Virus record (IMG/VR): IMGVR_UViG_3300032397_000006
Span: 40,086 to 104,085 of that record
Length of the DNA stretch: 64,000 nt
Source of the DNA: a virus
Direction: 5' to 3' (one strand)
How positions within the stretch are numbered: the stretch's first letter is position 1; the number at the start of each line of letters is the position of its first letter. Both the position numbers and the translations under genes were made by a program. Of the stretch, positions 1 to 25,992 are shown one piece after another. The notes beneath the pieces are model-generated. The model did not search any database, was not told the DNA's origin, and saw nothing but the letters and a program-made list of their open reading frames with translations.

Positions 1-1775
1 AGATGCGAGGGGGCGACAGAGAGCCGCGTCGAGGAACTGTGCGCGTGCTGGTTTGCGTCGAGCGCTTTGAACCAATCGTTTCCCTGACTGAGCTGAAACA
101 CCGCACCGCCGATGCCCGCCGATCCTGTCGCCGTGTGGCTGTCCTCGTCGGTGGGTAGCGTGCTTTTCGCCGCCAGCGCTTCGGTCACACCGATGATTTG
201 TCGCTCGCGCAAGATCTTGGCTACCGCGTCCTGCGTGACCTTGTAGCGCGACGCGGCTGCTCGCAAATTCTTACTCGTGCCCAGCGACTGCACGAGCTGC
301 CCCATAATGGCTTGAGCCATTGCTTGCTCGTTGTACATTTGCTGCGGCGATTCTTGCGACACCACGCCGTAGCTCGTCTCGATAAAGCTCACGAGATACG
401 GCATGAGAAACCGCTCCGGAATCGCGACGTCGGTACCGTCGTCTGCAAAGCCGTCGAGTCCCTTGCGCAGCACGTTGCGCTGCAACGCGTGGAAAAGTGA
501 TTTCCCAAGAGCACGCGCGCTTTTCTTGACCCTGAACGGATTCTGCTTTTCTTGCTCAGCTGCGTACTCGCGATCGAGGCGCTCTGCATACTCGCGCGCT
601 TCCGCTTGCGGTTCGTACGTGTCCAGGTGTTCCTTGGCTGCGGCCTCGTGCTTCTCCGCTTCAGAATGAAAGCCGTACTTCCTGTGATCCTCTGCGACGA
701 TCAAATGCGCTTCTGCTGCGCGTTTGTGTAGCACTTTCTTGTTTTTTGCGCGCTTATTCGACGCTTCCATATCCGCAATCTCTGCGTCTGCTTTCTTAGC
801 GCGCAGCAGACGGTGGATTTTCTCGTCGACCGCAACGGGCGCGGGAGGCGCAGAGCCCTCGATATACGCGTATTGCCAGCCTCCCTTACCGTCTGGCTTG
901 CGCGTAATGTACTTGTGCCCAGGTCGCTCCGAATTCCAGCTCGATCCCTCCGCCTTAAACATGGAGGATTTTCCGAACGGCTTCTTTCCGCCGAACGCGG
1001 GAGGCTTCTTTTTCGGCTTGGCCTGATCGCCACCGAACGGCTTAGCCTTTGGCTTCGCGCCGAACTGCTGCGCGGGCTTTCCTGTACCGCCGTCTGCATC
1101 CTGATCGTCAGGTACGCCGTCGTCGTCGGCATCCACGTCCTGATCGTCGGGCACGCCGTCCCCGTCCTGATCAGCATCCTGATCGTCAGGCACACCGTCC
1201 CCGTCCTGATCGGGCGCGTCCTGATCGGGCTGCTCGTCGCCGGGACCACCGCCGCCAGCCTCGAGCCCTTGCCCGCCCTGCACCGCACGCACGAGCTTGC
1301 GCACAAGCTTGTGGTACGTGTCGAGCAGCGCCATGGAGTTATGGTGCTGCGCGCCGTGAAATCCCTTCGCGGCGTAGTAGTCGCGCTCTGCATCGGCGAT
1401 TTGCTGCACGAGTGCCTGAGGGTCTTCGCTCGCGTCGCCACCTGCGTCCGCGCCGTCGTCGCCCTCCGGCAGATCCTCCCCATCGCCCTCGTCGTCGAAG
1501 CCCTCGTCGTCGCCTTCCTCGCCCGCGCCGTCGTCGAGCTCGTCACCGTCACCATCACCAGGCCCGGGCTCGCCCTCGTCGCCATCGGGCTCCTCGCCCT
1601 GATCGTCGCCCTGCCCGTCGTCGGGTGCCGTGTCAGACGCGTCCGGAGCTCCGCTGTTCGGATCCTGATCGTCGGGCACACCGTCCCCGTCCTGATCATT
1701 CTCCTCGTCAGCGCCCGCCTTTTTCTTGGCGAACGGCGGCACGGCTTTCAGCAAAAGATCGATCGCGTCTAGCAT
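1..1775 (-). CDS. Acidic modular virion-associated protein (3'-truncated by window edge) with DQDGDGVPDDQD repeats and one GHKY..R.PDGKGGW motif
   Basis: Absent from the ORF track because it has no stop in the window. Manual translation from ATG 1775 (RBS GAGGGGAG) gives MLDAIDLLLKAVPPFAKKKAGADEENDQDGDGVPDDQD...FGKSSMFKAEGSSWNSERPGHKYITRKPDGKGGWQYAY..., open to position 1. Confidence 0.85.
   Translation of the reverse strand, partial: MLDAIDLLLKAVPPFAKKKAGADEENDQDGDGVPDDQDPNSGAPDASDTAPDDGQGDDQGEEPDGDEGEPGPGDGDGDELDDGAGEEGDDEGFDDEGDGEDLPEGDDGADAGGDASEDPQALVQQIADAERDYYAAKGFHGAQHHNSMALLDTYHKLVRKLVRAVQGGQGLEAGGGGPGDEQPDQDAPDQDGDGVPDDQDADQDGDGVPDDQDVDADDDGVPDDQDADGGTGKPAQQFGAKPKAKPFGGDQAKPKKKPPAFGGKKPFGKSSMFKAEGSSWNSERPGHKYITRKPDGKGGWQYAYIEGSAPPAPVAVDEKIHRLLRAKKADAEIADMEASNKRAKNKKVLHKRAAEAHLIVAEDHRKYGFHSEAEKHEAAAKEHLDTYEPQAEAREYAERLDREYAAEQEKQNPFRVKKSARALGKSLFHALQRNVLRKGLDGFADDGTDVAIPERFLMPYLVSFIETSYGVVSQESPQQMYNEQAMAQAIMGQLVQSLGTSKNLRAAASRYKVTQDAVAKILRERQIIGVTEALAAKSTLPTDEDSHTATGSAGIGGAVFQLSQGNDWFKALDANQHAHSSSTRLSVAPSH
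1100..1700 (-). repeat. Asp-rich DQDGDGVPDDQD repeats (thrombospondin type-3-like Ca-binding motif)
   Basis: About 4 copies of cctgatcgtc(a/g)gg(c/t)ac.ccgtc, at ~1100-1210 and ~1665-1700. Confidence 0.7.
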
Positions 1776-1836
1776 AGGTCTCCCCTCGGATTCTCGCCGA
1801 GAGTACCCTAGCGCCTACGCGAGCGCGAGCGTTGAC

Positions 1837-2007
1837 CTACTTCGCCGCGGACTCGCGTGCAACGCACGCACGGAATCGGACAACATCCTCGCTATCCTCG
1901 AGACTTGAATCCGCCCTGTCGTCGCTGTCGTCGCGCACGTAGTTTTTCAAGCGTTCAAGCATATCCTCGCGACTGAACGAGGCCTTTCTTGGTTTCTGAT
2001 CCTCCAT
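1837..2007 (-). CDS. Small acidic protein downstream of zeta-like gene
   Basis: ATG at 2007 overlaps the upstream stop (TGATG); MEDQKPRKASFSREDMLERLKNYVRDD... Confidence 0.55.
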   Translation of the reverse strand: MEDQKPRKASFSREDMLERLKNYVRDDSDDRADSSLEDSEDVVRFRACVARESAAK

Positions 2008-3302
2008 CACACCCTCCGGAGCACGAGCTTTACAGCTCGCATAGACTTCATCCAACCACGGGCGCGCGCGATCAAATGTCGGCGTAATCCCGTCTGTTTG
2101 AATTTTCGCACATAGTTCGGATCAATAACAACGTCGGGCTGATTTTCTCCGCCCGCCCACACTAGGCGCGGTTTCGGGCCTGCGTTGTCAAATAGCGAGA
2201 ATTCATGAGCTCTACGCGCTATCTGCTCGAAATTCCCAGGAATGACGTGGTGCGCTTCCCGCACGAAATTGTCAGGCACGTAACGCCCGGTATTCCGCGC
2301 TCGGGAGCCCACGCGGGAGACAGCCTCAGCGAGCGGAATGTGTGGCATCACGAGGTGCACGTGGTAGCCCGCGGCTTTCAGTGCCTCGATTCGCCCAATG
2401 AATTTCTCCGTGTTTTTCCCCGTGCCGTCGAGAATCAAATTCTTGCGCTCTGCCACAGCGCGAGCTCGGACCTTTTCGCCGAGGTCGCTGGACTCCTCGT
2501 GTGCCATGGCCGCGGCATCTTTCGCCGTCACCGTCGATCCGTCCGCTGTGAGTCCGTACGCGAGAGCTCGCTGATACTCAGGTAGCTTTTCCTTACACGC
2601 GTCTGGATCGGACACGACGAAATCATTGTGGTCGCCCACTAGCGTGGCGAGGATCGAGCCCTTGCCGACGCCGGAGCCTCCCATGGTGACGATCGCCGTG
2701 GGCGTGCGATCGAGCGGCACGGGCTTCACGTGCTTGGTAAATGAATCCACGATCGCCGCGTGGAGCGCTTTACGCTCAGGCGTGTAATCCTTGAAGCGCA
2801 CCGGGCGAATACGACCGACCTCGATTGTGTGCGCGGTTTTCGTTTCCGCAGGAAGCCCGATCGAAGTCGCGGATTCGAGCCAAGCGCGATCGCGCTTGGT
2901 TGCGTGCGTTGCGCGCTCCGCGTCTGAAAATACGTGCACCACTTCGGCCGGGCTCACGATCGGGAAACTGCTGGGCGCCTCGCGACGCTGCACCGGCTTT
3001 GTGCCCGTGTGTCCGTAGTCGTAGTTCCAGCCGCCCTTACCATCTGGCGTGCGACGAATGTATTTATGCCCGGGCCGCTCCTCGCCCTTTTCCGACTTGA
3101 GCAAATCGAGCGGGATCACGTGCGCCTTTTGTGTCGGCTGCTGCTGCGCTTGCTGTCGAGGAAAGCGAGCTCGAAATCCGCGCTCCCTCGAGCGTCGGAT
3201 GTCCGAATATTTCTTAGGCTGCGCGAGCCCTTGTGCGAGGCCTCCGCGCAGCATATCGGCGAGGCGTGCCGTCTCGCGTGGATCCTTCGGCGGTAGGCTC
3301 AC
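2007..3302 (-). CDS. Zeta-toxin-like P-loop kinase with N-terminal GHKY..PDGKGGW motif
   Basis: MGGSGVGKG Walker A, DPD, NLILDGT, R..GRYVP typical of Zeta_toxin; GTG start at 3302 overlaps the upstream stop (GTGA). Confidence 0.8.
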   Translation of the reverse strand: MSLPPKDPRETARLADMLRGGLAQGLAQPKKYSDIRRSRERGFRARFPRQQAQQQPTQKAHVIPLDLLKSEKGEERPGHKYIRRTPDGKGGWNYDYGHTGTKPVQRREAPSSFPIVSPAEVVHVFSDAERATHATKRDRAWLESATSIGLPAETKTAHTIEVGRIRPVRFKDYTPERKALHAAIVDSFTKHVKPVPLDRTPTAIVTMGGSGVGKGSILATLVGDHNDFVVSDPDACKEKLPEYQRALAYGLTADGSTVTAKDAAAMAHEESSDLGEKVRARAVAERKNLILDGTGKNTEKFIGRIEALKAAGYHVHLVMPHIPLAEAVSRVGSRARNTGRYVPDNFVREAHHVIPGNFEQIARRAHEFSLFDNAGPKPRLVWAGGENQPDVVIDPNYVRKFKQTGLRRHLIARARGWMKSMRAVKLVLRRV

Positions 3303-6300
3303 GTGTCCCCCCAAATGCGCTTTCCTGCGGTCGCGCCCTGATAAATGTGCGAGGCGATTTTGCCTGCACGGTGCTGATCTTCAATGTAACTCATGGAGTC
3401 TCGATAAATCGAGTCTGCATTTATTGCGCGCGCACTGTCTGGCATGCTGTCGCCCAACGCTACGTTCGGTTTGCCCCCTGGAAATGTCACCTCAGCGAAT
3501 ACGAAATCCGCGTGATCCTTGTGCGCTTCGTGGAATTTCGAGAAGTTTTTCGCGCCCTCTGCGTAGCTGTCGGCGAATACGCGTGCGTCGACCATACGCC
3601 CCGCGCCCACCGCACGTGCGACAGCGCCTGGCCAAGCGCGCTTTGGATCCGAGTGCACAAACATGAACGTGGGCTTTATCCCACGTTTCGCGCACTCAGA
3701 AATCAACCACTCGTTCTCCGTTGCGTTCTGCTCGCCTGCCGCGTCCCAGGTAGCAGCTACTGACTTCGGCAGATCAGGACGCGCGGCAAGGCCTACGCCT
3801 TTGCCCGCCGCACAGCCGCCGCTCGTGACCAAGATCTTACGGTCTCCCGGTGCCATTTTCGCGATCTCGTCAAGGCGCGTGATAAAGGCACGCTTCGCGA
3901 TCGCGTTCGCAGTCTGATGCAGCGCAGTGTTGTACAAGCTCCGCGCCTTGGCACGCTCGAGATTCATCGGCTCGCCTGGCTTATCCGGAGGCAAGTCGTC
4001 GCGCTTCCAGTCGGCGAGCAATGCCTTCGCGCCATCTGTTTCGAACACGTAATTGTTCTTTTTCGCGATCTCGCCGAAAGCCTGAGCTGTACCGTTCGGG
4101 TCGCGCTCGAATGCGTCCGCGAAACGCGTCTCGATCGCACGCTCCTCGTGCGTGAGGTTAGGCAGCTTCGGCACACCAGGCGGGGGCAGCACAGCATCGC
4201 CCGGAATGCCGACGCGTGCGGCTTTCTCGTTCGGCTTCTGCGGCGTGGCGCTCCTCGAGAGCGGCTTACGCTTGACGGCTTGGCCTTGCGCAGATCGCGC
4301 CGTGCGTGGTGGCGCGTTCGTGTAGAAATACTGCCAGCCGCCCTTACCATCTGGCTTGCGCCGCATGTACTTGTGGCCGGCGCGTTCTTGCCCCGGTACA
4401 AATGCCTTTTTCATCGCACGACGGCGCACGCAAAACGTCGTCTGCGATTCCTTCGCACCGGCTTCTACACTGCGCAGTTTCTTGTAGTAGTCCGGACGCT
4501 CGCACAGGTGATCGAGGGCGATATCCGCGGCTTTCTCGAGATCCTTTGTGTGCTCGAGCTCGACCTGCATTCCTGCCTGTAGATCGGTCGCTGTCCAGCG
4601 CGCATGCTCCCACTCCACACCGAGGCGCTTCGCAGCGCTCATAGCTGCATCGTGCGAAACACGAAGTGCTTTCGACTTCCGCGTAGTGTCAGTGGCGCAG
4701 CTCGCGCAAGGCACAACGGGATCGCAGCCAGAGCAGCTCTTTTTCAGCCCCTTTTTCGCCTTCGCGCGAGCTCGGGCCTTACGCCCCTTTGCGCGGTGCG
4801 ACCACTCGAGCGCCTTACCTTCTGGCAGCTTGCCCTCAGCTTCTGCAGCGAAAGCCCAACGGCGCTGCTTTTCGCTAAACGGGTGCTGCATCTTGCCCTT
4901 CGCGAAAGCTTCAAGCTCGTCGAGCGGATCGAGTGATTTCTTTTTCTCAGCTGCCGCCAGCTGCTTTGCTACGCCGTGCGCATAGCTTTCAGCCAGCAGA
5001 GAAGCTCCGCCAAATTCGACATCCTTTGGTGCCACGTGCGACATCTCGCGCACAAAGTGCTCGGCCTCCGCTTTGCTCGTGAGTGCTCCGCCCGCGTTGA
5101 TGGAGTATCCGCTCGGAATATGCGTGACGTGGTAAATGCCGTACTGCCCGCGCGTGATTCCGTAATCGCCGATCGCCGGCATGGACGTGACCTCAGGATC
5201 GCGGATTTCCTTACCGTCTTTATCGCGGATCGCCAAGTGCACGTCGACCGTGCGCAGCTTCTCAGGCTTGATGCCCGCGACCTTTTCAGCTGCGCGCATA
5301 GCGTCGCGGTGCTTCGCGACCTTTTCGAATGCAGATTCCATCGCCTCGTTCAGACCAGGCGCCGCTTTGCGTGAAAACACGTAGGGGTGGCTGTTCTCCC
5401 AAGACTCGCGCCGCGCCTTTGAAGCGACGTCGAGATCCTTACGCGCTTCGGAGAGCTGCTGACTGTGGGAGGCAGCCTCGCGCGCGTGCTCGTGTGGCGT
5501 ATCGCCCGCGACGACGTGTGAATAGACGTAGTGCCAGCCCCCGCGACCATCGGGCTTGCGAGTCAGGTATTTGTGCCCTGCAACCTCGTCGCCCTTCGCG
5601 GCCTTGCTGAGCTCGCCGAGATTGTCTAGCGCATCGCCACTCTTGAGAGCCAGCATTCCCCATTTTTGCGACTCGGCGAGGCCTGCGCGCATGCCTGAGA
5701 ACGCACCCTCAGACATACCTGCCCGCTCGAGAGCAGCATCTAAACGCTCGCGTGTGACCTTCGCATGCGCCTTGGCCTCAGCGTGCCGCGTCGAACCCGG
5801 AGTGTGCGCGTATTGGCTGGCGACACGCTCTGCGCTCGCGCGCTCGTGCTCGCGCGACGCTGCCACCACAGCGCGCTGTGCAAGTGGCGCCTTACGCTTC
5901 GCATGCGCGTCTGCGTAGTCGTAGCGCCAGCCGCCGTGCCCGTTCGGCTCGCGCTTGAGATACTTGTGGCTGGTTGCCTCGTCGCCCTTGGAGGCCTTGA
6001 TCAAAGGCAAGAGTGCATCGATCGCGTCGGCTGATTTATACGCGAGCGAAGTCGTCTTGAGGGCAACCCTACGCACGGTGCTAGGACTCGCGCGCAAACG
6101 GGACACGGTTTGCTTGTTCCAGAAATGCTCGATCTTACGTTTCGCTTTGCGCTTGGCTTTACGCGCAGCGAGCGCGCCCTTGATCTTTGCGTAGACGTAA
6201 CTCCAACCGCCCTTACCGTCAGGCTTGCGCTCCGTGTACTGATGCCCTGCCTGCTCCCCGCCGCGTACAGCATCAGCCTTCGCTGCTTTAATAAACAGCA

Positions 6301-7501
6301 CAGGTGCCGATTTCTCGACTTTTGCCGGACGCCACGCATCGGGCTTCGTGTCAGGCTTTACGCCGTCTGCATTCTTGTCGTAGGAGCTGTCTTTTATGTA
6401 GCCACGCGGCACGACGTCGAACGTGCAGTAGATGCCCATAATACCGATCGTGCTCCCCCAATTTTCGGTTGTGATCGGCGACGCTTTGTAGACGCTGTGC
6501 CGCTCAGTAAGGATCTTTTTTCGCATCTCTTTCACAGCACCCCACAGAGCATCTTTCTCGCCCTTGTTCGCGTAGGTGCTGTGGAACTTGATCGTCGCCT
6601 TAGCAGTCGGGCGAAATGTCTTCGGGTGCGTTTCGCGTATCACGCTAACGGTCCCTTTTTCGCCGAACGTCTTCGGTCCTTTCTCGATATCAGAGAGCAG
6701 CTTGTCTATTTCCGGTGGCGGCAGCTCGCCCTCTTTTTTAGAGGCCGCATGCTCCGCGCTACCCTCTGCGGGATATTCATAATCCCAGCCGCCCTTACCG
6801 TCTGGCTTGCGCGTAAGGTATTTGTGCCCCGGGCGCTCCTCGCCCTTGGCTAGAGATTTCTCGTATTTGAATTCCGCGGTCTCCCGCTCGTATTTCGGCA
6901 CTTGATAAGGATCTACGTGTTTCCACCGCCCCTCGTGCCATACGGGCTCGAGATTCTTTTTCTTGCGCGCAGCTGGTAAAGGCGCCGTAAATAGCGGCGT
7001 AGCCGGCTTGTGCTCATCGATTCGCGCTTCGGAATAGCCGCCAGGCAAGCGCCGCGTGCGCACATACGAAGGGTAATTGCCGAGACTGCGCGGCATGTCG
7101 AAATCAACGTTGTCGGAAGTCGCGCCGTCTCCCTCCAATAGGTGCCCGAAAACCTTAATCTCTTTCGAGTGCCAGCTCCCGCCCGCCGTGGCCAGGTACA
7201 CCTTACCGTTATGCGGCAGCAGAAAAGGCGCGCTGTGCCCCTCGGTCGCGGCTTGCTCGATCGCTTGCTTGAGCACGCTCGGATCAAAGGCGCCCACTTG
7301 TTTCTTGTGATCGGCGGGAGGCTTGTAGCTGTATTTCCATCCGCCTTTACCATCTGGCGAGCGCAGCAGATATTTGTGCCCCTCGACCTCTACGCCCTTC
7401 GCCGCTTTCTCGAGTAGCGCTAGGGGATCGAGCTCAGGCTGAGCTCTCACAAGGCTCAAGCCGATTGCGTGCTTTCGAAGTGCTGAGATCGCATCAGTCA
7501 T
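3299..7501 (-). CDS. ~1400 aa modular polyprotein: six GHKY..PDGKGGW motifs, DUF5661-like domain, C-terminal zeta-like kinase
   Basis: Six motif copies; GMQVELEHT..A.DIALDHL.ERPDYY (DUF5661-like); VTSGGCAAGKG P-loop and AGRMV at the C-terminus; ATG 7501 overlaps the upstream stop (ATGA). Confidence 0.85.
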   Translation of the reverse strand: MTDAISALRKHAIGLSLVRAQPELDPLALLEKAAKGVEVEGHKYLLRSPDGKGGWKYSYKPPADHKKQVGAFDPSVLKQAIEQAATEGHSAPFLLPHNGKVYLATAGGSWHSKEIKVFGHLLEGDGATSDNVDFDMPRSLGNYPSYVRTRRLPGGYSEARIDEHKPATPLFTAPLPAARKKKNLEPVWHEGRWKHVDPYQVPKYERETAEFKYEKSLAKGEERPGHKYLTRKPDGKGGWDYEYPAEGSAEHAASKKEGELPPPEIDKLLSDIEKGPKTFGEKGTVSVIRETHPKTFRPTAKATIKFHSTYANKGEKDALWGAVKEMRKKILTERHSVYKASPITTENWGSTIGIMGIYCTFDVVPRGYIKDSSYDKNADGVKPDTKPDAWRPAKVEKSAPVLFIKAAKADAVRGGEQAGHQYTERKPDGKGGWSYVYAKIKGALAARKAKRKAKRKIEHFWNKQTVSRLRASPSTVRRVALKTTSLAYKSADAIDALLPLIKASKGDEATSHKYLKREPNGHGGWRYDYADAHAKRKAPLAQRAVVAASREHERASAERVASQYAHTPGSTRHAEAKAHAKVTRERLDAALERAGMSEGAFSGMRAGLAESQKWGMLALKSGDALDNLGELSKAAKGDEVAGHKYLTRKPDGRGGWHYVYSHVVAGDTPHEHAREAASHSQQLSEARKDLDVASKARRESWENSHPYVFSRKAAPGLNEAMESAFEKVAKHRDAMRAAEKVAGIKPEKLRTVDVHLAIRDKDGKEIRDPEVTSMPAIGDYGITRGQYGIYHVTHIPSGYSINAGGALTSKAEAEHFVREMSHVAPKDVEFGGASLLAESYAHGVAKQLAAAEKKKSLDPLDELEAFAKGKMQHPFSEKQRRWAFAAEAEGKLPEGKALEWSHRAKGRKARARAKAKKGLKKSCSGCDPVVPCASCATDTTRKSKALRVSHDAAMSAAKRLGVEWEHARWTATDLQAGMQVELEHTKDLEKAADIALDHLCERPDYYKKLRSVEAGAKESQTTFCVRRRAMKKAFVPGQERAGHKYMRRKPDGKGGWQYFYTNAPPRTARSAQGQAVKRKPLSRSATPQKPNEKAARVGIPGDAVLPPPGVPKLPNLTHEERAIETRFADAFERDPNGTAQAFGEIAKKNNYVFETDGAKALLADWKRDDLPPDKPGEPMNLERAKARSLYNTALHQTANAIAKRAFITRLDEIAKMAPGDRKILVTSGGCAAGKGVGLAARPDLPKSVAATWDAAGEQNATENEWLISECAKRGIKPTFMFVHSDPKRAWPGAVARAVGAGRMVDARVFADSYAEGAKNFSKFHEAHKDHADFVFAEVTFPGGKPNVALGDSMPDSARAINADSIYRDSMSYIEDQHRAGKIASHIYQGATAGKRIWGDT

Positions 7502-10500
7502 CGCTTCCCCGTTTCCACAGCGTCCCGGATCGTAGCCCATTCTCGCACGTTGAAGCGTATCGAAGGCTTCTGCGGCGCCGCCCCATGGAAAGCGTATTTA
7601 CCACTGTTCCGGCGTGCGAGGGCCTTCCTTCGGCGCCTGGAGGCCTTCACTTCCTTTTCGGTCTGCACGGTCCCGTAGATGCCCTCGAAATCGGGGGACT
7701 CCTGCGAAGGGCTGTAGCGCTGCACGACGTAGGATTTCACGAGAGCTCCGTGGTTGCTCGGGTCGGTCACGAACGCGGCGAAATCTTCGAACGCGACCGC
7801 GCGCACTTGCCCCAAGAATCGAGGATCGTCGTAGTGCGCTTGGTAAGCCTGCACCGCGGCACCGAGATTCGAAAACCCGAGCATGCACTTCTGTTCGTCT
7901 ACGTGCACGAAGTCGGGCGACTTGAGCTGATCGATCACGAACACGTAAGGCGCCATCTTGTCGGGCCCGACGTAGACGTCCACGTGATCGCCATCCGTGC
8001 CTTGCGTGCGCCGCACATAGCCGTAGTCGTGCACCATCTTTGTTTTGCCTGCGCGCTTCGCGTGTGCGTCGTACCAGTGCCGGTAAGATCCTGCCTGGTT
8101 TTCGACGCTCACCTTTAGCCCGCGGAAATCCCGACGCCTGTGCAGCTTGCGCGACTTCTCGAGCGGAGCTTTCAAGCTGTCGATCACTTCTGTAATCGCA
8201 TCGTCGCTGTCCTCAATATGCGCGCCGAAACGCGCGAAAGCCTGCCTGATCGCAGGTTCAATCATGCGCCGCCCCCCGGGCTCGCTCGCGAGCTCTGCGT
8301 ACTCCTCTCGATATTCAGCCAGCGCATTGATCGCGTGCGACACTGCTTGCTTTCTGCCCTCAGGCGAAGCAATAGGCTGCAGCTCGTAGGAGCGTTGATC
8401 CTCTTTTGATAGAGGCGCGTCGTAGGTCACGGTGCCGTGCCGAAAAGCAGGATGCTTTCCAATCGAGGAAAATCCTTTAGGCGCTGTGAACGTACCGATC
8501 GGCCTATTCTGCATACCGTACACGTAGTGCCAGCCTCCCTTACCATCAGGGTGACGCTCCGCGTAAAGGTGCCCCGCTTGCTCCTCGCCCTTTGCCGCTT
8601 TACGCAACACGAGCAGCGCCTTCAATACAGCATCCTGAAACGCGTGGCGCTTATCCCAATCGAAATCGAGCGCGAATTTCGACGGTCTGCCGGGTGTCTC
8701 GACGCGCGTATAGAAATCCTCAGCTGCGGGCTTATATTCGTAGCCCTTGCCTTTATGGTGCTCGCCCGCGTGTCCGCCCGTCGTGAAATGCATCTCATGC
8801 GCTCCGCGGTGCGAATGAATTACTGAGTCTTGATTAAACTGCTTTCCGAGCGCGCGCATAACACCAAACTCGCTAGGCGAATCGTGGTGCACCATGAAGG
8901 CATTACTTTTCTGCGGCTTCGCGCTCTCGTGATGCACGATAAAGCTCGCCTCACGCGAACCATAATGCCCCTCGACCTCGGTATAGCGGAGCTTGCGCTT
9001 TTTCAGCTCGCCTCGCAGGCGTTCGTGTCGCGCTTTGAATTCCGCGTGATCCTCAGACATGTCCTTTTCGCGCGCGTCGTTTCCGTTGCGACCTGCGCTG
9101 ATAATCGAATAGGTGCCGTGCTCGAGCAGATCGTCCAGCTGCGGACGCGTGAGACGCACCTCGCCCGCGGGTTTGCGTGGAGGTCTGTCGCTCGGGTGCC
9201 CGGGCAGATCATAGCCGTAGCGCCAGCCTCCCTTACCGTCTGGCGTGCGGCGCACGTACTTGTGCCCCGGACGCTCGCCTTCGCTGCCCTCGCGCGCTTT
9301 ACGGATCGCTTCGCCCCACGGAATGATATGCATACTTTTCTCCGTACCCTCTGCGCGGGCTTTGACGGCTGCGTAAGTGTCAGGGTGCACCGCAGGCGCA
9401 TCGCCATCGTCGCGCGTCGCGTTGCCCTTCATGTCCACGCCCAGCCACATTCGCCAGTGTCGATCAAGCTGCCCGATCGAGGAAATCACTCCGGGCTTAG
9501 CGAGCAGTTCCTTTGCCATCTTTTCGCGCTCGGCCTTCGGCAGCTTGCTCGCGTGATACTGCTCGACCTCGAGTTTCTGTTGCTGCTCTGCGGCAACCTT
9601 GTCCTGCGCTGCGCGCTTCGCTTGCGCCGCTTCGCGTTCGGCCTGCGCGGCTGCCTCGCGTGCTGGAGCGCCCGCTTCCCACTCCGCTTGCTTTTGCTTC
9701 TCTGCAGCCTTCGCGGATTTCTTTTCAGCCTCTCGCCGCGCTTCGCGTTCGGCCTCGACCTTCTCTGTCTCGTGCGGCAACGAAATACGATGGCGCTTGA
9801 AAGCATCCGGATCCGGATCGCCGAGCTCCCCTTGTGCTTCCTGAATCGCTGCTGCGGGGACCTGCAAATCATCGCGTGCCATCACGAGCGTTTCTTCTTC
9901 GCCCTCGTACGCACCTAGATCAGCCTCGTGCTCCGCGTGAAACAAGACGGCTTCAACAGGCACGTCGAGCGTGACCACGGCGCCGCGCGTTGCGTACTGC
10001 GTGCCGAAGTCGTGCGCGCTTTCGTGGTCGCTGGTCCAGCTCGACAAGCTGCGCACTGCAACGGGAACGGTGCCGCCCTGCGCTTGCTTCGCTTGCTCGA
10101 CAAGGGCCTTACCCTGGTCGTGCGCAATGCCGCGATGAATGCGCACTGTGCGCTCGCCCTTGGCAGCGAATAGCGCCTGCGTCGCTGCGTACTGCCTGAT
10201 CGCCATCGCTTCGCAGTCGTCGATTTCCTTTTTCGAGATACGGGACGCACGCGTAACCGCTTCTGCAAACGTACGCTTTTCGTCTGCGCTTGCGCGACCT
10301 CGAGCGATCTTGCCGATCAACGCGAGTTGTGGCGTGGTTTTCGTCATCCATTCATTTCGCCAAGCGTTACGCACGTGTGACTCGTCGGAATGATCGGCGA
10401 AAGCATCATCCGTGTGGGAAATGCCTTTCATGGACGCGGCGAGCGCTGCGATTTTCTTTTTATGCGCAGGCGACATGCCGAGATCAGGAGATACCGCGTA

Positions 10501-12750
10501 AGTGTTCTGCGCTGCCGGCGTGCGCACGCCCTTACTGTCCTCGTAGAAGTAGTTATGCCCGCCCTTACCATCGGGCTCACGGCGAATGTATTTGTGTCCC
10601 GGGCGCTCGCTGCCTTCGCTCTTTTTCAGTTTGAATCTGGCGAGCACTTCTGGCTTGCGCATTACGCGCTCGATCGGACGCCCAAAACGGTCAGTATCTT
10701 CTCCCTCCTCGGATGATTGCGAGCCCAGCAGGAGGGCGTACTTTCCTTGATAGGCTTTTGCGTGATCTAATGCCCGCGAGACGTCGCTACCGTCTCGGCT
10801 ACCTAGATCAATTGCGCTAGTCCCGTCGAGAACATCATCCGTAGGTTCACCATCCTCCCAGCGGCGGGACTCTGCTAAAATAGAACCGACCTCAGGTGGA
10901 TCTGCGTCGTCAACAATGCGCAAGCCGATCGTATGAAATTCAGGCGCATATTCTTTCAGTATCGACTTCACGGCGTCTATGTGCAACGGCGAGATGTCAG
11001 TTCTCTCGCGCTGCTTGAGTCTATCTTCGAATTGGAGGTCGGAGAATTGCCGCGTAGGCGCGAGCTCGCGCACTTTCGCAACATGCTCGCGCAGCTGATC
11101 GAGCGACATCGCGCCTTCATCGAAAGTCGCGAATAAATCGAGGCTCAAGTCGAGCGCGAGGTGCGGCTCAATCTGAAAATCAATTGCGCGTAGCCCTTTG
11201 ATCTTGGTGTTGAGCTCTGCTGCTGCACGCTTACCGATCGGCTGCACGTAGCCGATATCGATCATCTTCGGTTTATCGCCCTCGATCACGAATGAGTTTT
11301 CCTTGAATTCAGGCGCTGTGAATTCGTGCTCGCGCAGCACCTTCGCAATCGTCTGGTGCGCCTCCCACAAGCCTTTCGAACCCCACCCCCCGGGTCTGCC
11401 CTCGACCTCAGCGCGCACGAGCGTGTCAGTGTCCGCGTCGTATTTTTCGAACGAGGGCACGAGGTCTTTCGTGCGCGGATCCTTGCTCAGCACCTCGAGA
11501 GCGTGCGCTTCATTCTTGCGCGAGCTCACGCCGCGGCGACCGACCTTGTACGCGGAGGCTCCATCCGTGAACACGATGCCCTCAGCGCCCGCCCCTAGCA
11601 GGCTCAGGGTGCCCGCTCTCGCGCCAGCCTTCACGGCACGTGCCGCAGCCTGCGGGAGCTCCGCGTGGACGGCGGCAGGCGCGTCCTCGAGTAACTTTGC
11701 GACGTCGACCTGTTCCGGGCGCTCCAACTTTTTCAGCGCTTCGGCCAGATCCTGATCAATGACCAGCTTACCGAAGGCGTCGGCATCCTTGCGGAGCGCG
11801 TGCGACATATCGATCAACTCGAGTGCGAATTTGTCCCGTTGCGCGTCTTGCTTCGGCGGGAACTTCAACACGTGTCGTAGCTGCGCTTCCCACTCATATT
11901 CGAGATTCGCGCCGCGAGGCGTGTAACGCTGTCCATTGCGTGCGTACAGACTCTCAAGTCCGTCGAGATCACTCTGCTGCGGAGACAGATGCCGGTAGCC
12001 GTCGTAGGGCTCCGCCTTGCCCGCCTTGCCTACGTCGAACATGAAGGCCTTACCGTCGTCATCGACACCGATCTGCGGCGTGTCGCCGAGCACGTAGCCG
12101 GCTTTGTGCATCGCGAGCACCGTATCGTGGGCCGCGTCGAGCTGCTCTAGCGTGAGCTTGTCGGGAATGCCGAGATAGCGCTTGATCGTGTAGCCGCGCC
12201 CGTCGTGCTCCACGAAGCGCTCAGGCAGTAGCCCGGGCACTCCGGCATCGCGGAGAGCTTGCTGTGTCTCGTGCTGCTCGCGTGCGACCTCGACAGCTTT
12301 CTGCGCTGTCTTGTACCAGGGGTTTGACGGCTGATAGGGGACAACCGTGCTGACTTTGACAACGTTGTCCCCTGACTTGAAAACAAGACCGTCGTCGCCC
12401 TTACCAAGAAACTCGGCAGTACCTCCGGTCACGGCGTCGATATCCGGATCTCCGCTTTTCTTATCGCTGACTACGCGGCCTTCTAAATCATCCTTGTACA
12501 TAGCAAGCGCGTCGTGCGAAATCTTGTGCCCGTAGCCAGGCACCGTCGCGTGAAAGCCGACGCTCGCGTGCGTGTCGTCGGAATCAAATACTTTCCATTT
12601 GAGCGTGCCGCGCATTCCGAGCTTTTCGTGCGGCGTAATGTCGATCTCATGCCCCGCTAAATAGCGATAGAGCCAGCCGCCCTTACCATCAGGATGGCGC
12701 TCGAGATACTTGTGCCCCTCTACGGTTTCGCCCTTGGCTGCCTTCTGCAT
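7498..12750 (-). CDS. 1750 aa polyvalent polyprotein: four GHKY..PDGKGG motifs; two kinase-like, ART-like, DUF3293-like, DarA_C-like and InPase-like domains
   Basis: FLGKGDDGLVFK..VVKV..FDVG; LLGAGAEGIVF..AYKV..MIDIG; IHRG..LSSWT..EGEEE; IISAGRN..EGHYG.REASF..FNQDSVI; RPIGT..PKG..RHGTVTY..L..YELQP; VENQAGSYR..DYGY..GTDGDHVDV..DEQKCMLGF. Confidence 0.85.
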   Translation of the reverse strand: MQKAAKGETVEGHKYLERHPDGKGGWLYRYLAGHEIDITPHEKLGMRGTLKWKVFDSDDTHASVGFHATVPGYGHKISHDALAMYKDDLEGRVVSDKKSGDPDIDAVTGGTAEFLGKGDDGLVFKSGDNVVKVSTVVPYQPSNPWYKTAQKAVEVAREQHETQQALRDAGVPGLLPERFVEHDGRGYTIKRYLGIPDKLTLEQLDAAHDTVLAMHKAGYVLGDTPQIGVDDDGKAFMFDVGKAGKAEPYDGYRHLSPQQSDLDGLESLYARNGQRYTPRGANLEYEWEAQLRHVLKFPPKQDAQRDKFALELIDMSHALRKDADAFGKLVIDQDLAEALKKLERPEQVDVAKLLEDAPAAVHAELPQAAARAVKAGARAGTLSLLGAGAEGIVFTDGASAYKVGRRGVSSRKNEAHALEVLSKDPRTKDLVPSFEKYDADTDTLVRAEVEGRPGGWGSKGLWEAHQTIAKVLREHEFTAPEFKENSFVIEGDKPKMIDIGYVQPIGKRAAAELNTKIKGLRAIDFQIEPHLALDLSLDLFATFDEGAMSLDQLREHVAKVRELAPTRQFSDLQFEDRLKQRERTDISPLHIDAVKSILKEYAPEFHTIGLRIVDDADPPEVGSILAESRRWEDGEPTDDVLDGTSAIDLGSRDGSDVSRALDHAKAYQGKYALLLGSQSSEEGEDTDRFGRPIERVMRKPEVLARFKLKKSEGSERPGHKYIRREPDGKGGHNYFYEDSKGVRTPAAQNTYAVSPDLGMSPAHKKKIAALAASMKGISHTDDAFADHSDESHVRNAWRNEWMTKTTPQLALIGKIARGRASADEKRTFAEAVTRASRISKKEIDDCEAMAIRQYAATQALFAAKGERTVRIHRGIAHDQGKALVEQAKQAQGGTVPVAVRSLSSWTSDHESAHDFGTQYATRGAVVTLDVPVEAVLFHAEHEADLGAYEGEEETLVMARDDLQVPAAAIQEAQGELGDPDPDAFKRHRISLPHETEKVEAEREARREAEKKSAKAAEKQKQAEWEAGAPAREAAAQAEREAAQAKRAAQDKVAAEQQQKLEVEQYHASKLPKAEREKMAKELLAKPGVISSIGQLDRHWRMWLGVDMKGNATRDDGDAPAVHPDTYAAVKARAEGTEKSMHIIPWGEAIRKAREGSEGERPGHKYVRRTPDGKGGWRYGYDLPGHPSDRPPRKPAGEVRLTRPQLDDLLEHGTYSIISAGRNGNDAREKDMSEDHAEFKARHERLRGELKKRKLRYTEVEGHYGSREASFIVHHESAKPQKSNAFMVHHDSPSEFGVMRALGKQFNQDSVIHSHRGAHEMHFTTGGHAGEHHKGKGYEYKPAAEDFYTRVETPGRPSKFALDFDWDKRHAFQDAVLKALLVLRKAAKGEEQAGHLYAERHPDGKGGWHYVYGMQNRPIGTFTAPKGFSSIGKHPAFRHGTVTYDAPLSKEDQRSYELQPIASPEGRKQAVSHAINALAEYREEYAELASEPGGRRMIEPAIRQAFARFGAHIEDSDDAITEVIDSLKAPLEKSRKLHRRRDFRGLKVSVENQAGSYRHWYDAHAKRAGKTKMVHDYGYVRRTQGTDGDHVDVYVGPDKMAPYVFVIDQLKSPDFVHVDEQKCMLGFSNLGAAVQAYQAHYDDPRFLGQVRAVAFEDFAAFVTDPSNHGALVKSYVVQRYSPSQESPDFEGIYGTVQTEKEVKASRRRRKALARRNSGKYAFHGAAPQKPSIRFNVREWATIRDAVETGKR

Positions 12751-19069: not shown

Positions 19070-19085
19070 AGCTGCAAGAGTAACA

Positions 19086-19852: not shown

Positions 19853-19857
19853 TAGCG

Positions 19858-21556: not shown

Positions 21557-21566
21557 CGCGCGCCTT

Positions 21567-21863: not shown

Positions 21864-21864
21864 T

Positions 21865-22428: not shown

Positions 22429-22718
22429 TTGCGACACCGCGGCATCCTGCGCGCTAGCGGCACGGTGCGAAGTGCTGCCGTGTGCTCGCGTAGAAAATCG
22501 AGCACGTACCGCGTGGCCTCGGCCTTCGCGTCCTCGATTCCCTTGTGCTCTAACGGCACGCGCGAGATCCCTAGTCGGGGGCAGCTCAACAGCCACTGCG
22601 TAGCGGCAAAATCAATATGCCGGTGCACGCACAGCTCGCACTGCCCGAATTTCACGCGATGCGCGTACGCGATCGTCGTGCCTGCCCTCGTGTCCTCGAT
22701 CCAATCGCCCACGCTCAC
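22425..22718 (-). CDS. Hypothetical protein
   Basis: Stop overlaps the MT-A70 start; preceded by TTGACG-GTTATCG element (22730-22758). Confidence 0.5.
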   Translation of the reverse strand: MSVGDWIEDTRAGTTIAYAHRVKFGQCELCVHRHIDFAATQWLLSCPRLGISRVPLEHKGIEDAKAEATRYVLDFLREHTAALRTVPLARRMPRCRK

Positions 22719-22766
22719 CCCTGCGCGCGGCTTTACTACGGCGTACGATAACCGTCAAGCTGCAGA

Positions 22767-23348
22767 TCAACGCTCGATAAACGCGAGCAAACGATCTATT
22801 GCTTCGACCTCCGGATCGGGCGCTTGCGCGGGCACTAGGCGGAGCACCGCGGCTTGCCTAGGCGCGTGCAGCAGTCGCACCGGAGGTGCTGCTACAGGCG
22901 CTTCGAACGAGGCCAAGGTGCGCGCCTTATCGTCGCGCTCAAGCTCCCAATCAAACGAGACCGAACCGTAAAAGTTCACGTCGAAATAGTCGGTCATCCT
23001 GTCCGATCGGTCATAGTTGTAAGCGTCTCGAATGCCCTCTAGCGCGTCCAGCAAAGCCCGCGCTGCGTCGGTGTAGCGGCCTCCCGGGTGCGAGGTCGAG
23101 TGCGGGTAATCCCGTTCGTACAGCACGCGTTCAGGGCTGCAAATCACGAAACCCTCAGGCGCCGCAGTGACCTCCACGTCGAGACTGCGCCCTCCGCTAT
23201 ATTTTCGTACGCGCACCGAGATTTTGCAGTCCGGCATCGCGCCCGACTTGATCGAGGCCTTGATCTCCGCGCGCACACGCTTTGCGATGGCCACGATCGA
23301 CAAGTCGCGATCGTATTTCGAACCTGAGCTATTGCAGTTTTCCATCAC
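22767..23348 (-). CDS. LPD29-like (large polyvalent protein domain) protein
   Basis: IAKRVRAEIK..KISVR..YSGG.S.DV...YNYDRSDRMTDYFDVNFY. Confidence 0.75.
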   Translation of the reverse strand: MMENCNSSGSKYDRDLSIVAIAKRVRAEIKASIKSGAMPDCKISVRVRKYSGGRSLDVEVTAAPEGFVICSPERVLYERDYPHSTSHPGGRYTDAARALLDALEGIRDAYNYDRSDRMTDYFDVNFYGSVSFDWELERDDKARTLASFEAPVAAPPVRLLHAPRQAAVLRLVPAQAPDPEVEAIDRLLAFIER

Positions 23349-23367
23349 GGTACCCTTCCCTTTTTAT

Positions 23368-23625
23368 TCACACGCGCTTGTACGAACTGCTCAGTGCGTA
23401 CTCAGCGGCAACGCGCCGGCACGCGGATTTCAGAAAGCTTTTCGAGTACCCGCGCAGCACCTTCAACTCGTGCGCCCAGCATCCAAGAATACTCCCGCCA
23501 AGCACCTTCACTTCGACGCGAACATCGTCCGCCCAAACCACTTCGCCCTCGAGACCAGCCCAGCTCGGACACTGCACACCGACGTACCGAACGATCGCGC
23601 CTTTTTTGACTTCCTTGTTTCCCAC
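23368..23625 (-). CDS. Small SH3-like hypothetical protein (cassette gene)
   Basis: GTG start directly after the repeat RBS GAAGGGAAGGT. Confidence 0.55.
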   Translation of the reverse strand: MGNKEVKKGAIVRYVGVQCPSWAGLEGEVVWADDVRVEVKVLGGSILGCWAHELKVLRGYSKSFLKSACRRVAAEYALSSSYKRV

Positions 23626-23630
23626 AAAGC

Positions 23631-23676
23631 ACCTTCCCTTCAATCTAGTTATCTCACGACGCGATAACTCGCGCAA
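23631..23676 (-). promoter_or_regulatory. Repeated promoter/operator/RBS element, copy 1
   Basis: TTGCGC-N17-GATAAC; palindrome GTTATCgc-N5-gaGATAAC; then TAGATTGAAGGGAAGGT. Confidence 0.8.
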
Positions 23677-23692
23677 GCGGAAACGCCCGCGG

Positions 23693-24115
23693 TCAGGAGA
23701 CCGAGCGCGCCAGATCTTCGACCGCTCGCCGCAAGTCAAACCGATTCAAGTCTTCGTCCAGACTTTCGCGCCCGAGTACGCGCTCAGCGAGAGCTCGCAC
23801 TTTCAAGATGTCGTCACTGAATTCCTCGTTCACACACTCGAGTTTTTCCACCTGATCTTCGAGCTCGCTGATCTCGCCGCGCAAGCGCTCGATCACGTTG
23901 CGTTCACTCACGAGCTCGTCAACCAAGCACTGCGCCAGCTTCGCAAACTGCAGCGCGATAGGCCCCACGTCCCGCGCCACGCCGTTATCGACAACACACA
24001 CGCCTTCACTTTGGAGCACTGAGACGAACGCCCGAAAATCCTCGATCTTCCGGTCAGCCGCTTCCTCGAGTGACAGCGCCTTCGGTCGCGCCTTCGCTTT
24101 TACGTTCCTTGCCAC
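23693..24115 (-). CDS. Coiled-coil hypothetical protein (cassette gene)
   Basis: GTG start after repeat RBS. Confidence 0.65.
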   Translation of the reverse strand: MARNVKAKARPKALSLEEAADRKIEDFRAFVSVLQSEGVCVVDNGVARDVGPIALQFAKLAQCLVDELVSERNVIERLRGEISELEDQVEKLECVNEEFSDDILKVRALAERVLGRESLDEDLNRFDLRRAVEDLARSVS

Positions 24116-24120
24116 GACTC

Positions 24121-24166
24121 ACCTTCCCTTCGATTTAGTTATCGCATGTTCCGATAAGCTATGCAA
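24121..24166 (-). promoter_or_regulatory. Repeated promoter/operator/RBS element, copy 2
   Basis: TTGCATagcttatcggaacatgcGATAACtaaatcgaagggaaggt. Confidence 0.8.
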
Positions 24167-24175
24167 GATCAAAAG

Positions 24176-24499
24176 CTAGTCGCTTGCGGCATCATCGTAC
24201 GCTGCGATTCCGTGCCGATTCAGCACCTCAGCGAACACGCGCGCTCGTCCGAGAGCTCGGCCGTCCGCATTGTCGTAGCCCATGTAAATCGCGTTCTTGC
24301 CCACGCCGTAGCCTTGCGCGTTGAAGATCAGGCCAGACTGCTCACACACCTTTTTGACCGCTTTGATCAGAGCGCGGTCACCCGACACGCATACGTAAGC
24401 ACGACCGCAGCCGGACGCGCGAGCAGCAATGTAGGGCGCGTCATTTGCCTCGCGGATTGCTACGGCCACCTTGCTCTCGAGCTCTGAATTCTTTCCCAT
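24176..24499 (-). CDS. Hypothetical protein (cassette gene)
   Basis: MGKNSELE...GCGRAYV...AFAEVL-like C-terminus (RVFAEVLNRHGI). Confidence 0.65.
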   Translation of the reverse strand: MGKNSELESKVAVAIREANDAPYIAARASGCGRAYVCVSGDRALIKAVKKVCEQSGLIFNAQGYGVGKNAIYMGYDNADGRALGRARVFAEVLNRHGIAAYDDAASD

Positions 24500-24504
24500 G
24501 AAAC

Positions 24505-24550
24505 ACCTACCCTTCAATCTAGTTATCGCACGAGACGATAACAGCGGCAA
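24505..24550 (-). promoter_or_regulatory. Repeated promoter/operator/RBS element, copy 3
   Basis: TTGCCGctgttatcgtctcgtgcGATAACtagattgaagggtaggt. Confidence 0.8.
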
Positions 24551-24582
24551 CGCTTTTCGACCGCTAACGTAGGAGCGCTCGC

Positions 24583-25992
24583 TTAACTCTCGACGCTGTG
24601 TCTGTGAGCGGCGTGCCTCTCGGCTGCCTGCCGGCTGCCGGTCTCTGCGATCACGCTGCCTGCGCGGCGCACTTGCCAGAGCCCGTCCGATCCACGCTGT
24701 ACCGTGTGCTGCCCGTGCGTCGCCACGACGGGCCCTGTAGCGCTCGCTGGATCGCGCACGGGCAAAGGGGGTGGCGTACCGCCAGCCTTGCCCGGAAGGG
24801 GCGGAGGCTTGGCGGCGTCGGCCTGTTTCGGCAACGGCGGAGGCACGCCCGCGGCACGCGTCGGAGGTGTCTCGCGCTTGCGCTGATCCACAGCCGCGAG
24901 CGCTGCCGCTTGCGCCGCAGCACGCTTTGCCTTCGCACCTCGAGGCTTCGCGCCCTTCGCGCCCTGCAACGAGGCCAACAGCTTCGCGTGCTGCGCGAGC
25001 TGCGCGCCTTGCTGCGCGAGCTGCGCCTGTAGCTTGCCCTCCCTGCGCGTCGATTTCGCATGCTCCGCGGTCAGTGCTGCGTGTCCATTCGCTTGCGCTG
25101 CTGCGTGCTCTCGCAATTGCGAGCGTGCCGCTTTCGCTGCTCTCTGATCGCCTGAGCGTTTCGCCTGCACGAGTGCACTGCGCGCGATCTTGTGCTCGCG
25201 CACGAGCGCTTGCGTCGAGGCCTGATGCTGCGCGTGCTGTTGCGCGAGCTGACCGTGCAACGCCTTAAGCTGAACCTGAGTCTGTTTATGGGCTGCGATC
25301 AAATGCTGTTGCGCGATCGCGTGCGCCTGCATTTGTTTCGCATTACGTTTCTTCGACTCTGCGAGCCGTCCCGACGCGGTGCGCTTATGTGCCTGCAGTT
25401 TTTTCGCGAACGCTTTCTGATGCGAAAGCAACGCGCCCGCAGAGATTCGCTTCTGCTGCTCGAGTCTCTTACTGTGTGCGCGAACCGTAAGCTTGAGCTT
25501 TTTCTTGAAGGCCTTCTGATGCGCGAGGAGCTTCTCTGTGTGCTGCTTTTTCTGCTGCTCAAGTTTCTGCTTAGGCGTGAGCTTTTTCGCCTTACTGCGC
25601 GCAGGCACGTGCAACGGCATGCGGGCAAGCTTGCTCCACTTACCGCCAGCTTTACGACCTACCCATTTCTTACCGTCGAAACGAAACTCGTGCCGCTGGC
25701 CGCGCGACTTGACGTGAAAGGTGCTCGCCTTTCCGGAGTGCTCGATCTTGTGCACCATGCCCGCGGCACCCGTCCGCATCGCAACGGCGGTACCTACGCC
25801 TAGTCGTCGAGGAGCGCCCTGCGGCGCTGCGTAGACGTAATTCCAACCACCCTTACCGTCTGCTTTACGCGTAAGGTATTTATGACCAGGCATTTCCTGC
25901 CCGGGCACAGCAGCTTTACGCAAGGGCTCCGCAAAAGACAGCACGTCGAAGTGCGTCACGTCTTGTGCAGTCAACGGAATTACCAGGAGCAT
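24583..25992 (-). CDS. Basic K/H/Q-rich coiled-coil protein with N-terminal GHKY..DGKGGW motif
   Basis: LRKAAVPGQEMPGHKYLTRKADGKGGWNYVY; long AHQK-rich coil; three PPPLP repeats. Confidence 0.8.
   Translation of the reverse strand: MLLVIPLTAQDVTHFDVLSFAEPLRKAAVPGQEMPGHKYLTRKADGKGGWNYVYAAPQGAPRRLGVGTAVAMRTGAAGMVHKIEHSGKASTFHVKSRGQRHEFRFDGKKWVGRKAGGKWSKLARMPLHVPARSKAKKLTPKQKLEQQKKQHTEKLLAHQKAFKKKLKLTVRAHSKRLEQQKRISAGALLSHQKAFAKKLQAHKRTASGRLAESKKRNAKQMQAHAIAQQHLIAAHKQTQVQLKALHGQLAQQHAQHQASTQALVREHKIARSALVQAKRSGDQRAAKAARSQLREHAAAQANGHAALTAEHAKSTRREGKLQAQLAQQGAQLAQHAKLLASLQGAKGAKPRGAKAKRAAAQAAALAAVDQRKRETPPTRAAGVPPPLPKQADAAKPPPLPGKAGGTPPPLPVRDPASATGPVVATHGQHTVQRGSDGLWQVRRAGSVIAETGSRQAAERHAAHRHSVES

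Follow-up and report, generated by a model that had tools for sequence, protein, structure and literature searches.

A repeated cassette of predicted cleavage site and hairpin tag heads unrelated cargos in candidate injected proteins of an uncultivated phage with an SPO1-like capsid

The choice of injected proteins and their loading into the head are understood in few model phages (T4, P1 and phiKZ/SPN3US), and each of these solves the problem differently. In T4, the capsid-targeting sequence shared by the internal proteins IPI-III and by Alt is about 10 residues long, lies upstream of the gp21 cut (L/I-x-E|) and is removed. Encapsulin cargo-loading peptides, which dock cargo inside a shell of HK97 fold, are C-terminal and extended and have no link to proteolysis. 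In P1, DarB has an N-terminal capsid localization signal, and DarA-Hdf lie on the inner capsid surface (PMC9024508, PMC12810830). Giant phages of the phiKZ/SPN3US type load ejection proteins under the direction of propeptides and cleave them (PMC7411985, PMC10052503). For polyvalent proteins, which phages and conjugative elements encode, packaging, entry into the host along with the DNA and processing by proteolysis have been predicted (Iyer, Burroughs, Anand, de Souza and Aravind, 2017; PMC5512222). Here we describe a short motif, GHKYxxRxPDGKGGWxYxY (the tag), that recurs in five proteins encoded by a 64,000-nucleotide stretch of DNA (the window), positions 40086-104085 of the 104,085-bp uncultivated phage contig IMGVR_UViG_3300032397_000006. 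Because the tag is tightly coupled to an upstream K|[A/S] site like that of the capsid protein (the bar marks the presumptive cut), we treat the two together as a cleavage-plus-tag cassette.

The tags were located by regular expression, and a profile hidden Markov model (HMM) was then built from the copies, whose alignment (A1) has 36 columns. Both methods give 13 copies in five open reading frames (ORFs), all on the minus strand: one in 3-1775, one in 2007-3314, six in 3299-7540, four in 7498-12750 and one in 24583-25992. The earlier count, made by a sequence-only reading of the window, is thus borne out for every ORF. The copies score 52-69 bits each (E-values of 1e-15 to 1e-20), and a six-frame search with the HMM reveals no fourteenth copy, either in the window or in the full 104,085-bp genome. 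Eight columns of A1 are invariant (H, Y, R, G, GG, Y, Y), and the tag, with four aromatic residues, carries a net charge of about +3. The tagged proteins and the copies that they carry are as follows.

1..1775 (full gene, genome 39887-41860), minus strand: tagged protein 1, 657 residues, crossing the left edge of the window
2007..3314, minus strand: tagged protein 2, 435 residues; a 73-residue basic leader, DLLK73|S and the tag, then a zeta-toxin/AAA_33 kinase-fold domain
3299..7540, minus strand: tagged polyprotein 3, 1413 residues, six cassettes
7498..12750, minus strand: tagged polyprotein 4, 1750 residues, four cassettes
24583..25992, minus strand: tagged protein 5, 469 residues, two genes past the large terminase
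855..962, minus strand: tag copy 1, residues 272-307 of protein 1, reading MFK|AEGSSWNSERPGHKYITRKPDGKGGWQYAY
3006..3113, minus strand: tag copy 2 (HMM), in protein 2
7316..7423, minus strand: tag copy 3 (HMM), in polyprotein 3
6764..6871, minus strand: tag copy 4 (HMM), in polyprotein 3
6182..6289, minus strand: tag copy 5 (HMM), in polyprotein 3
5906..6013, minus strand: tag copy 6, in polyprotein 3, the variant SHKYLKREPNGHGGWRYDY, preceded by DAIDALLPLIK|A
5513..5620, minus strand: tag copy 7 (HMM), in polyprotein 3
4313..4420, minus strand: tag copy 8 (HMM), in polyprotein 3
12652..12750, minus strand: tag copy 9, at the extreme N-terminus of polyprotein 4, reading MQK|AAKGETVEGHKY...
10534..10641, minus strand: tag copy 10, in polyprotein 4, with GGH in place of GGW; source of a faint DUF3892 match
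9202..9309, minus strand: tag copy 11 (HMM), in polyprotein 4
8509..8616, minus strand: tag copy 12, in polyprotein 4, immediately ahead of a DarA_C-like segment
25822..25929, minus strand: tag copy 13 (HMM), in protein 5

All 13 copies follow K-[A/S], which lies 10-15 residues upstream of the tyrosine of HKY, and the residue at P3/P4 (two or three before the Lys) is hydrophobic or basic in every case. A fuller junction, DAIDAL..L.K|A, is found in many relatives and, in this phage, at the N-terminus of protein 1 and ahead of tag 6. The sequence-only reading had taken the tag as the whole unit; it correctly recognized a recurrent module heading effector-like cargos, but overlooked the hydrophobic-x-K|[A/S] site upstream. 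AlphaFold2, run on the junction and tag 6 with a 51-row alignment, models the tag as a beta-hairpin (YLKREP / WRYDY) at a predicted local distance difference test score (pLDDT) of 82-84 and the junction as a helix of low confidence. The Gly-rich turn of the hairpin varies among relatives (PDGKGGW, PKAGGGY, RNASGGY). The hairpin is very small, and a stable lone domain is therefore unlikely; it more likely folds against a partner.

Relatives were sought by searching the profile of A1 against 1.84 billion cluster-representative proteins, which yielded 227 proteins at E<=1e-3, 42 of them at E<=1e-10, and many with multiple copies. The tag is strongly biased toward the start of the protein: of 188 copies, 68 lie within 40 residues of the N-terminus, compared with 3 within 40 residues of the C-terminus. 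Coupling to the upstream site was measured on 183 copies in 140 unrelated database proteins, with random positions in the same proteins as the background. K-[A/S] occurs 3-21 residues upstream in 85% of the copies against 27% of the background, with Leu at P3 in 54% and a hydrophobic P3 in most. When K-G is counted too, the site is present in 175 of the 183 (96%), and five of the eight copies without it begin no more than 25 residues from the start of their protein. The spacing from site to tag falls into two classes, 4-5 residues (K|A-(G)HKY) and 10-11 residues (K|AxKGxExxGHKY). The G-x-E ahead of the tag was considered as a site of the phiKZ/T4 type (S/A/G-x-E|) and rejected, as about 40% of the relatives are without this segment and the protease is not T4-type.

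HK97-type proteases cleave the capsid protein after Lys (K103|S104). Thirteen tag-bearing contigs include the capsid gene, and all 13 of the encoded homologues have (L/I)-x-K-A at the aligned position near the N-terminus; the same site is ELRK27|A in this phage and ALNK|A in SPO1 Gp6.1 (PDB 9vel). Since the capsid site has the same signature as that of the tagged proteins and HK97 cuts after Lys, the K|[A/S] junction can be read as a maturation-protease cut, that is, as a predicted cutting site of the prohead serine protease. In the tagged proteins the motif [LIMVF]xK[AS] reaches 3.4 times its density elsewhere in the proteome, with 29 sites observed against 14.3 +/- 3.7 in shuffles. The highest density of all, 7 sites in 246 residues, is found in the prohead protease, as is expected of a maturation protease that digests itself.

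What follows the tags is diverse, as the sequence-only reading had maintained. By blastp, the 13 post-tag segments show no pairwise similarity at E<=0.01, and their Pfam content is disparate, comprising Zeta_toxin, DUF5661, DRAT-like ART, S-AdoMet_lyase, DarA_C and InPase, together with weak zeta-like and weak DUF3293 matches. Protein 1 begins with MLDAIDLLLK|A; next come a D/E/G-rich acidic region, a basic linker and K274|A with the tag, and last a 350-residue C-terminal part that matches phrog_11550, 'internal virion protein' (E 1.9e-4). The N-terminal 270 residues of this protein (window 1080-1700, minus strand) are extremely acidic, with an isoelectric point (pI) of 4.1, and contain about five DQDGDGVPDDQD repeats that resemble calcium-binding motifs of the form Dx[DN]xDGxxDxxD (thrombospondin type 3-like); the linker between these repeats and the tag is rich in Lys, Pro and Gly. 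Protein 2 matches Pfam Zeta_toxin at residues 195-369 (E 1.7e-24) and also phrog_16619, 'minor head protein'.

The two polyproteins carry most of the cassettes. Polyprotein 3 has predicted cuts after K45, K228, K421, K515, K646 and K1045, and the predicted fragments, 94-399 residues long, have pIs of 9.2-10.6 throughout; Pfam places DUF5661 at residues 969-1026 and a weak zeta-like match in the last fragment. In polyprotein 4 the predicted cuts follow K3, K710, K1151 and K1384; its first cargo is a kinase-like segment of some 700 residues, its second a DRAT-like ART, its third a SAM (S-adenosylmethionine) lyase and its last DarA_C with InPase (Pfam E-values: InPase 4.9e-32, S-AdoMet_lyase 6.4e-7, DarA_C 1.1e-5, DRAT 7.5e-5). 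For the first of these (671 residues) the sole lead, from a language model, is to kinases of the OspG/NleH/APH type. The third (window 8623-9210, minus strand) scores 35.3 bits against the S-adenosylmethionine lyase family, for which the Pfam cut-off is 28, with a weak overlapping match to DUF3293; it is likely a virion-delivered anti-restriction enzyme. Protein 5 is made up of a 26-residue leader, PLRK26|A with the tag, a small beta-rich segment, a basic coiled coil and a Pro-rich tail, and matches no Pfam or PHROG family. Its predicted coiled coil (window 24583-25830, minus strand) spans about 240 residues rich in Gln, Lys and Ala, the fragment has a pI of 11.7, and the tail contains PPPLP repeats; protein 5 may condense DNA or belong to the core of the head. 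Among the PHROG matches of the tagged proteins is also one annotated 'released from the phage upon host infection'.

The composition of the fragments bears on what the hairpin might do. Eleven of the 13 predicted mature fragments have a pI above 8.5, like the internal proteins of T4, which are basic. The hairpin, with its charge and aromatic residues and its position almost always at a real or predicted N-terminus, might accordingly be a nucleic-acid-binding or ejection-leader element, which ties the fragments to the packed DNA or engages the portal/tail channel. There is a parallel in P1, where DarA-Hdf touch both capsid and DNA and exit with the DNA (PMC12810830). The tag shows, however, no similarity to a known nucleic-acid-binding motif in Pfam or in PDB sequences, and we think this explanation rather unlikely. 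Such a role is compatible with docking, and the two may coexist.

The phage is an uncultivated virulent myovirus with an SPO1-like capsid. Its major capsid protein shares about 35% identity with the capsid proteins of Bacillus phages of the SPO1 group and has SPO1 Gp6.1 as its best PDB match; no GenBank phage is similar to the genome at the DNA level. The window also encodes a DNA polymerase, a primase, helicases, an SbcCD-like nuclease and a baseplate wedge protein. The tagged genes form part of the head-gene block, which has the order TerL (large terminase), p173, a tagged gene, small genes, four tagged genes and portal, and further on the MuF-like/zincin protein, protease, scaffold and capsid. 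The four tagged genes are directly upstream of the portal gene, which lies immediately downstream of tagged protein 1. Between polyprotein 4 and protein 5 the block is split by about 25 small ORFs on both strands (window 12815-24550). The neighbours referred to below are these.

27143..28735, minus strand: large terminase, matching phrog_38 at E 4.2e-59; start of the head-morphogenesis block
25992..26513, minus strand: p173 (173 residues), between TerL and tagged protein 5
genome 29147-30889 (L002:9147-10889), minus strand: p580 (580 residues), with a MuF-like CDHC...HPWCAC, an NLRK|A site and a C-terminal HEIGH zincin motif

Homologues of p173 are fused to the N-terminus of a tagged protein in four related loci (L005, L010, L012 and L015), and homologues of p580 adjoin tagged proteins, or are fused with them, in 15. 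The Pfam matches of p580 are sub-threshold and to zincin families only; its MuF label comes from the Cys motifs and the position of the gene. The prohead protease matches phrog_1028 and, weakly, Peptidase_S78, and the scaffold-like protein (genome 26328-27221) is acidic. The protease (genome 27227-27967, L002:7227-7967, minus strand) carries SLSAGSAVTDPGVAPGEGFPLRRQSLE after VLAK|S, which is nearly equal to ALYAGNAVTDPGVAPGEGFPLRPQSLE, the predicted mature N-terminus of the capsid protein (genome 24862-26262, L002:4862-6262, minus strand). Mimicry of the capsid protein's N-arm may be the protease's way into the prohead.

With two candidate proteases in the head module, the hairpin might be a recognition element on the P' side (an exosite) for the prohead serine protease or for the MuF-linked zincin, and have no part in docking. 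The coupling of site and tag in 96% of copies agrees with this, and the presence of an own tag at every polyprotein junction fits a junction module naturally. The protein with the HEIGH motif co-occurs in 15 loci, and zincin processing of polyvalent proteins was proposed by Iyer et al. (2017; PMC5512222). However, the capsid protein, the protease, the scaffold and the N-terminus of protein 1 all bear hydrophobic-x-K|[A/S] without a tag, the spacing is not fixed (two main classes within a range of 3-21 residues), and in some relatives the tag stands at residue 3-12, with no upstream site to cut. The tag-less sites of capsid and protease, together with the two spacing classes, speak for a hairpin that is more than a portion of the site recognized by the protease, and we judge the exosite explanation improbable.

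The tag recurs beside head genes in other viral contigs. A scan of IMG/VR gave 34 tag-bearing loci, and in 27 of them the tagged ORFs are beside homologues of portal, capsid, protease, TerL or p580 in conserved order. Sixty-one relatives carry polyvalent cargos (Zeta_toxin, InPase, ART-PolyVal, ddrB-ParB, RelA_SpoT, DarA_C, Kinase-PolyVal, LPD1 and NUDIX), the domains whose injection along with phage DNA Iyer et al. (2017; PMC5512222) predicted. As a check, the sequence-only reading had suggested searching with an HMM of the copies for a tag that keeps company with one type of capsid and protease and with varied cargos; the outcome is positive, with 227 relatives, neighbours drawn from one portal/capsid/protease set in 27 of 34 loci and a variety of polyvalent cargos. 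HK97-type proteases bear a capsid-targeting segment in a C-terminal extension. In L021 (9200-10291, plus strand), it is in such an extension that a prohead protease homologue bears a K|A junction and the tag, as ...IQK|ALSHKYIRKEPDGKGGWNYIY, followed by 75 more residues. This homologue is 42% identical to the protease of L033, and its junction sequence resembles the junction ahead of the tag in a different protein of L033.

No tag was found by tblastn in 50,697 GenBank phage records, even at E<=10, with the six-tag protein or a single tag as the query. Among 185,579 species genomes a single tag locus is present, in an Acidimicrobiia metagenome-assembled genome. This locus (CAWAEN010000015.1, positions 1-14976; L038:2778-14975, plus strand) lies at the very end of a 469-kb bacterial contig and has four consecutive ORFs with two tags each and, on the other strand, one more tagged ORF with a weaker match, all five ahead of a portal homologue (E 8e-169). 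The locus either belongs to a prophage or results from an assembly join, and it may hint at the host.

The shared context in L033 and L021 raises the question of whether the motif is an evolutionary joint, a DNA or peptide linker for cargo shuffling that has no biochemical role. The same junction-plus-tag context precedes a NUDIX-type cargo in L033 and follows the protease in L021, and the cassette therefore moves between genes. Conservation, however, is at the level of the peptide. Between copies the nucleotide identity is 0.71, no higher than protein conservation needs (amino-acid identity 0.72), and the same codon is used at identical residues with a frequency of 0.55, against 0.46 expected from codon usage. 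This near-random codon choice, with nucleotide identity as the protein predicts, points to copies that are old, not recent DNA duplicates, and that have been maintained by peptide-level selection. That eight residues are invariant in 13 diverged copies and conserved across 227 database proteins likewise implies selection on the peptide, and a joint devoid of biochemical role is most improbable. DNA-level recombination joints in particular were considered and rejected, as codon identity barely exceeds expectation.

The sequence-only reading did not recognize the motif as a named family, and database searches bear this out. No Pfam, NCBIfam or PHROGs model covers the tag, PDB chains give no sequence match, and the motif strings have no relevant occurrence in the literature searched; in these databases and this literature the cassette is undescribed. 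The sole signal is a sub-threshold one to DUF3892 (PF13031), an uncharacterized domain (10.1101/2022.04.27.489752) linked by context to defence operons. The motif could be a fragment of this domain and share its function: two of the 13 copies and one relative match the last 20 of the 71 model positions (E 0.007-0.02 for the copies, 8.7e-4 for the relative). Against this, the match is 17.2 bits, below the curated cut-off of 22.3, it covers the C-terminal hairpin of the model alone, and 11 of the 13 copies have no match. There is very little chance, in our view, that the tag is a piece of DUF3892.

We favour an explanation in which head-packaged effector polyproteins are cut at each cassette into fragments led by a docking or retaining hairpin. 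The cassette would open with a short junction, probably a helix, that closes with hydrophobic-x-K|[A/S], in many cases DAIDAL..L.K|A; its second part, 0-8 residues on, would be the basic/aromatic beta-hairpin of about 20 residues, HKYxxRxPDGKGGWxYxY. The precursors would enter the prohead during assembly, where the prohead protease would cut every cassette, giving about 13 fragments of 94-707 residues, mostly basic and each with the hairpin first. The hairpin would be the common handle that brings the fragments into the head or keeps them there, its docking partner being the core/scaffold, the inner capsid surface or the packed DNA, and the fragments would exit with the DNA at infection. We infer that the tagged proteins are packaged and injected; their packaging and processing, as predicted from sequence, is quite probable. 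A docking or retention role for the hairpin is plausible but falls a little short of an even chance, and the whole explanation stands at about even. More tentatively, the cassette may be portable, such that anything placed behind it is loaded into the SPO1-like prohead, released, held by the hairpin and delivered to the host.

Several considerations weigh against this proposal. The docking role is something we infer. The AlphaFold2 model is of a 47-residue peptide, with a mean pLDDT of 68. Cleavage at K|A/S in SPO1-like capsids, including by N-terminal sequencing, was not found in the searchable literature; the HK97 precedent and the capsid chain in PDB 9row, which is 24 residues shorter, are only suggestive of such cleavage. 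One tag would suffice to load an uncleaved polyprotein, and 13 tags therefore call for retention after cleavage or for individual ejection. The identity of tags within proteins (0.62) is slightly higher than between proteins (0.53), and turn subtypes mix; so small a difference does not clearly point to tags that co-evolved with a partner particular to each genome. Finally, the MuF-like protein with the HEIGH zincin motif could be the processing enzyme instead.

The finding is a new form of a known theme, that of capsid-targeted, protease-processed, injected phage proteins. Like polyvalent proteins (PMC5512222), the tagged proteins combine disparate domains in one polypeptide, with ART, SAM lyase, DarA_C and InPase in the 1750-residue protein, and like those of polyvalent proteins their genes adjoin portal, MuF-like and head genes. 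Unlike here, no repeated address or junction motif is described in the polyvalent survey (PMC5512222), and none of its 40 LPD domains, nor any other Pfam model, matches the tag. Whereas that survey proposed processing by zincins, the junctions here copy the capsid maturation site. The analogy with the T4 capsid-targeting sequence drawn in the sequence-only reading applies to function: the signal is short, N-terminal, common to unrelated cargos and linked to the prohead protease, and the T4 cargo is later injected. It does not extend to mechanism. The protease is of the HK97/SPO1 kind and not gp21-like, the signal is repeated inside polyproteins, and the conserved hairpin lies downstream of the x-K|A/S cut, so that it would remain on the mature cargo rather than be removed.

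The P1 Dar system resembles this one in its large antirestriction/effector proteins, in head loading through an N-terminal signal, and in cargo that touches capsid and DNA and leaves on ejection. The 1750-residue protein has a DarA_C-like segment, and the likeness to DarA is limited to this stretch (26.3 bits in Pfam, with a cut-off of 27); NCBIfam anti_RE_DarA scores 20 bits on the protein against a cut-off of 350, far from full-length similarity. A tag hidden in P1 DarA upstream of DarA_C was looked for and is absent, with no HMM hit. Loading in P1 differs in that it depends on a hierarchy of helper proteins and not on a repeated peptide, and the P1 capsid is cut at E120|S121. In phages of the phiKZ/SPN3US type, the prohead protease likewise cuts many head-internal proteins at a short consensus, and these are then ejected into the host, but the protease type differs, the consensus is S/A/G-x-E in place of hydrophobic-x-K|A/S, and no common conserved hairpin is reported on the mature products. 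The likeness to encapsulin peptides is one of function only, a short conserved peptide on unrelated cargos, with no sequence similarity.

A single short cassette appears to organize the whole injected arsenal of a phage lineage. The polyvalent-protein concept previously came without a packaging or processing signal tied to the capsid protease; the cassette would add one, and would be an explicit sequence rule for where such proteins are cut and what the products contain. If the hairpin is a loading or retention handle, new effector modules could be added by simple fusion, the mature effector set would be predictable from sequence alone, and the tag would be a compact means of putting foreign proteins into phage heads. 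If the cassette is truly portable, injected effectors would have a plug-in system of natural origin, which one genome uses 13 times and which, in a relative, serves even a prohead protease.

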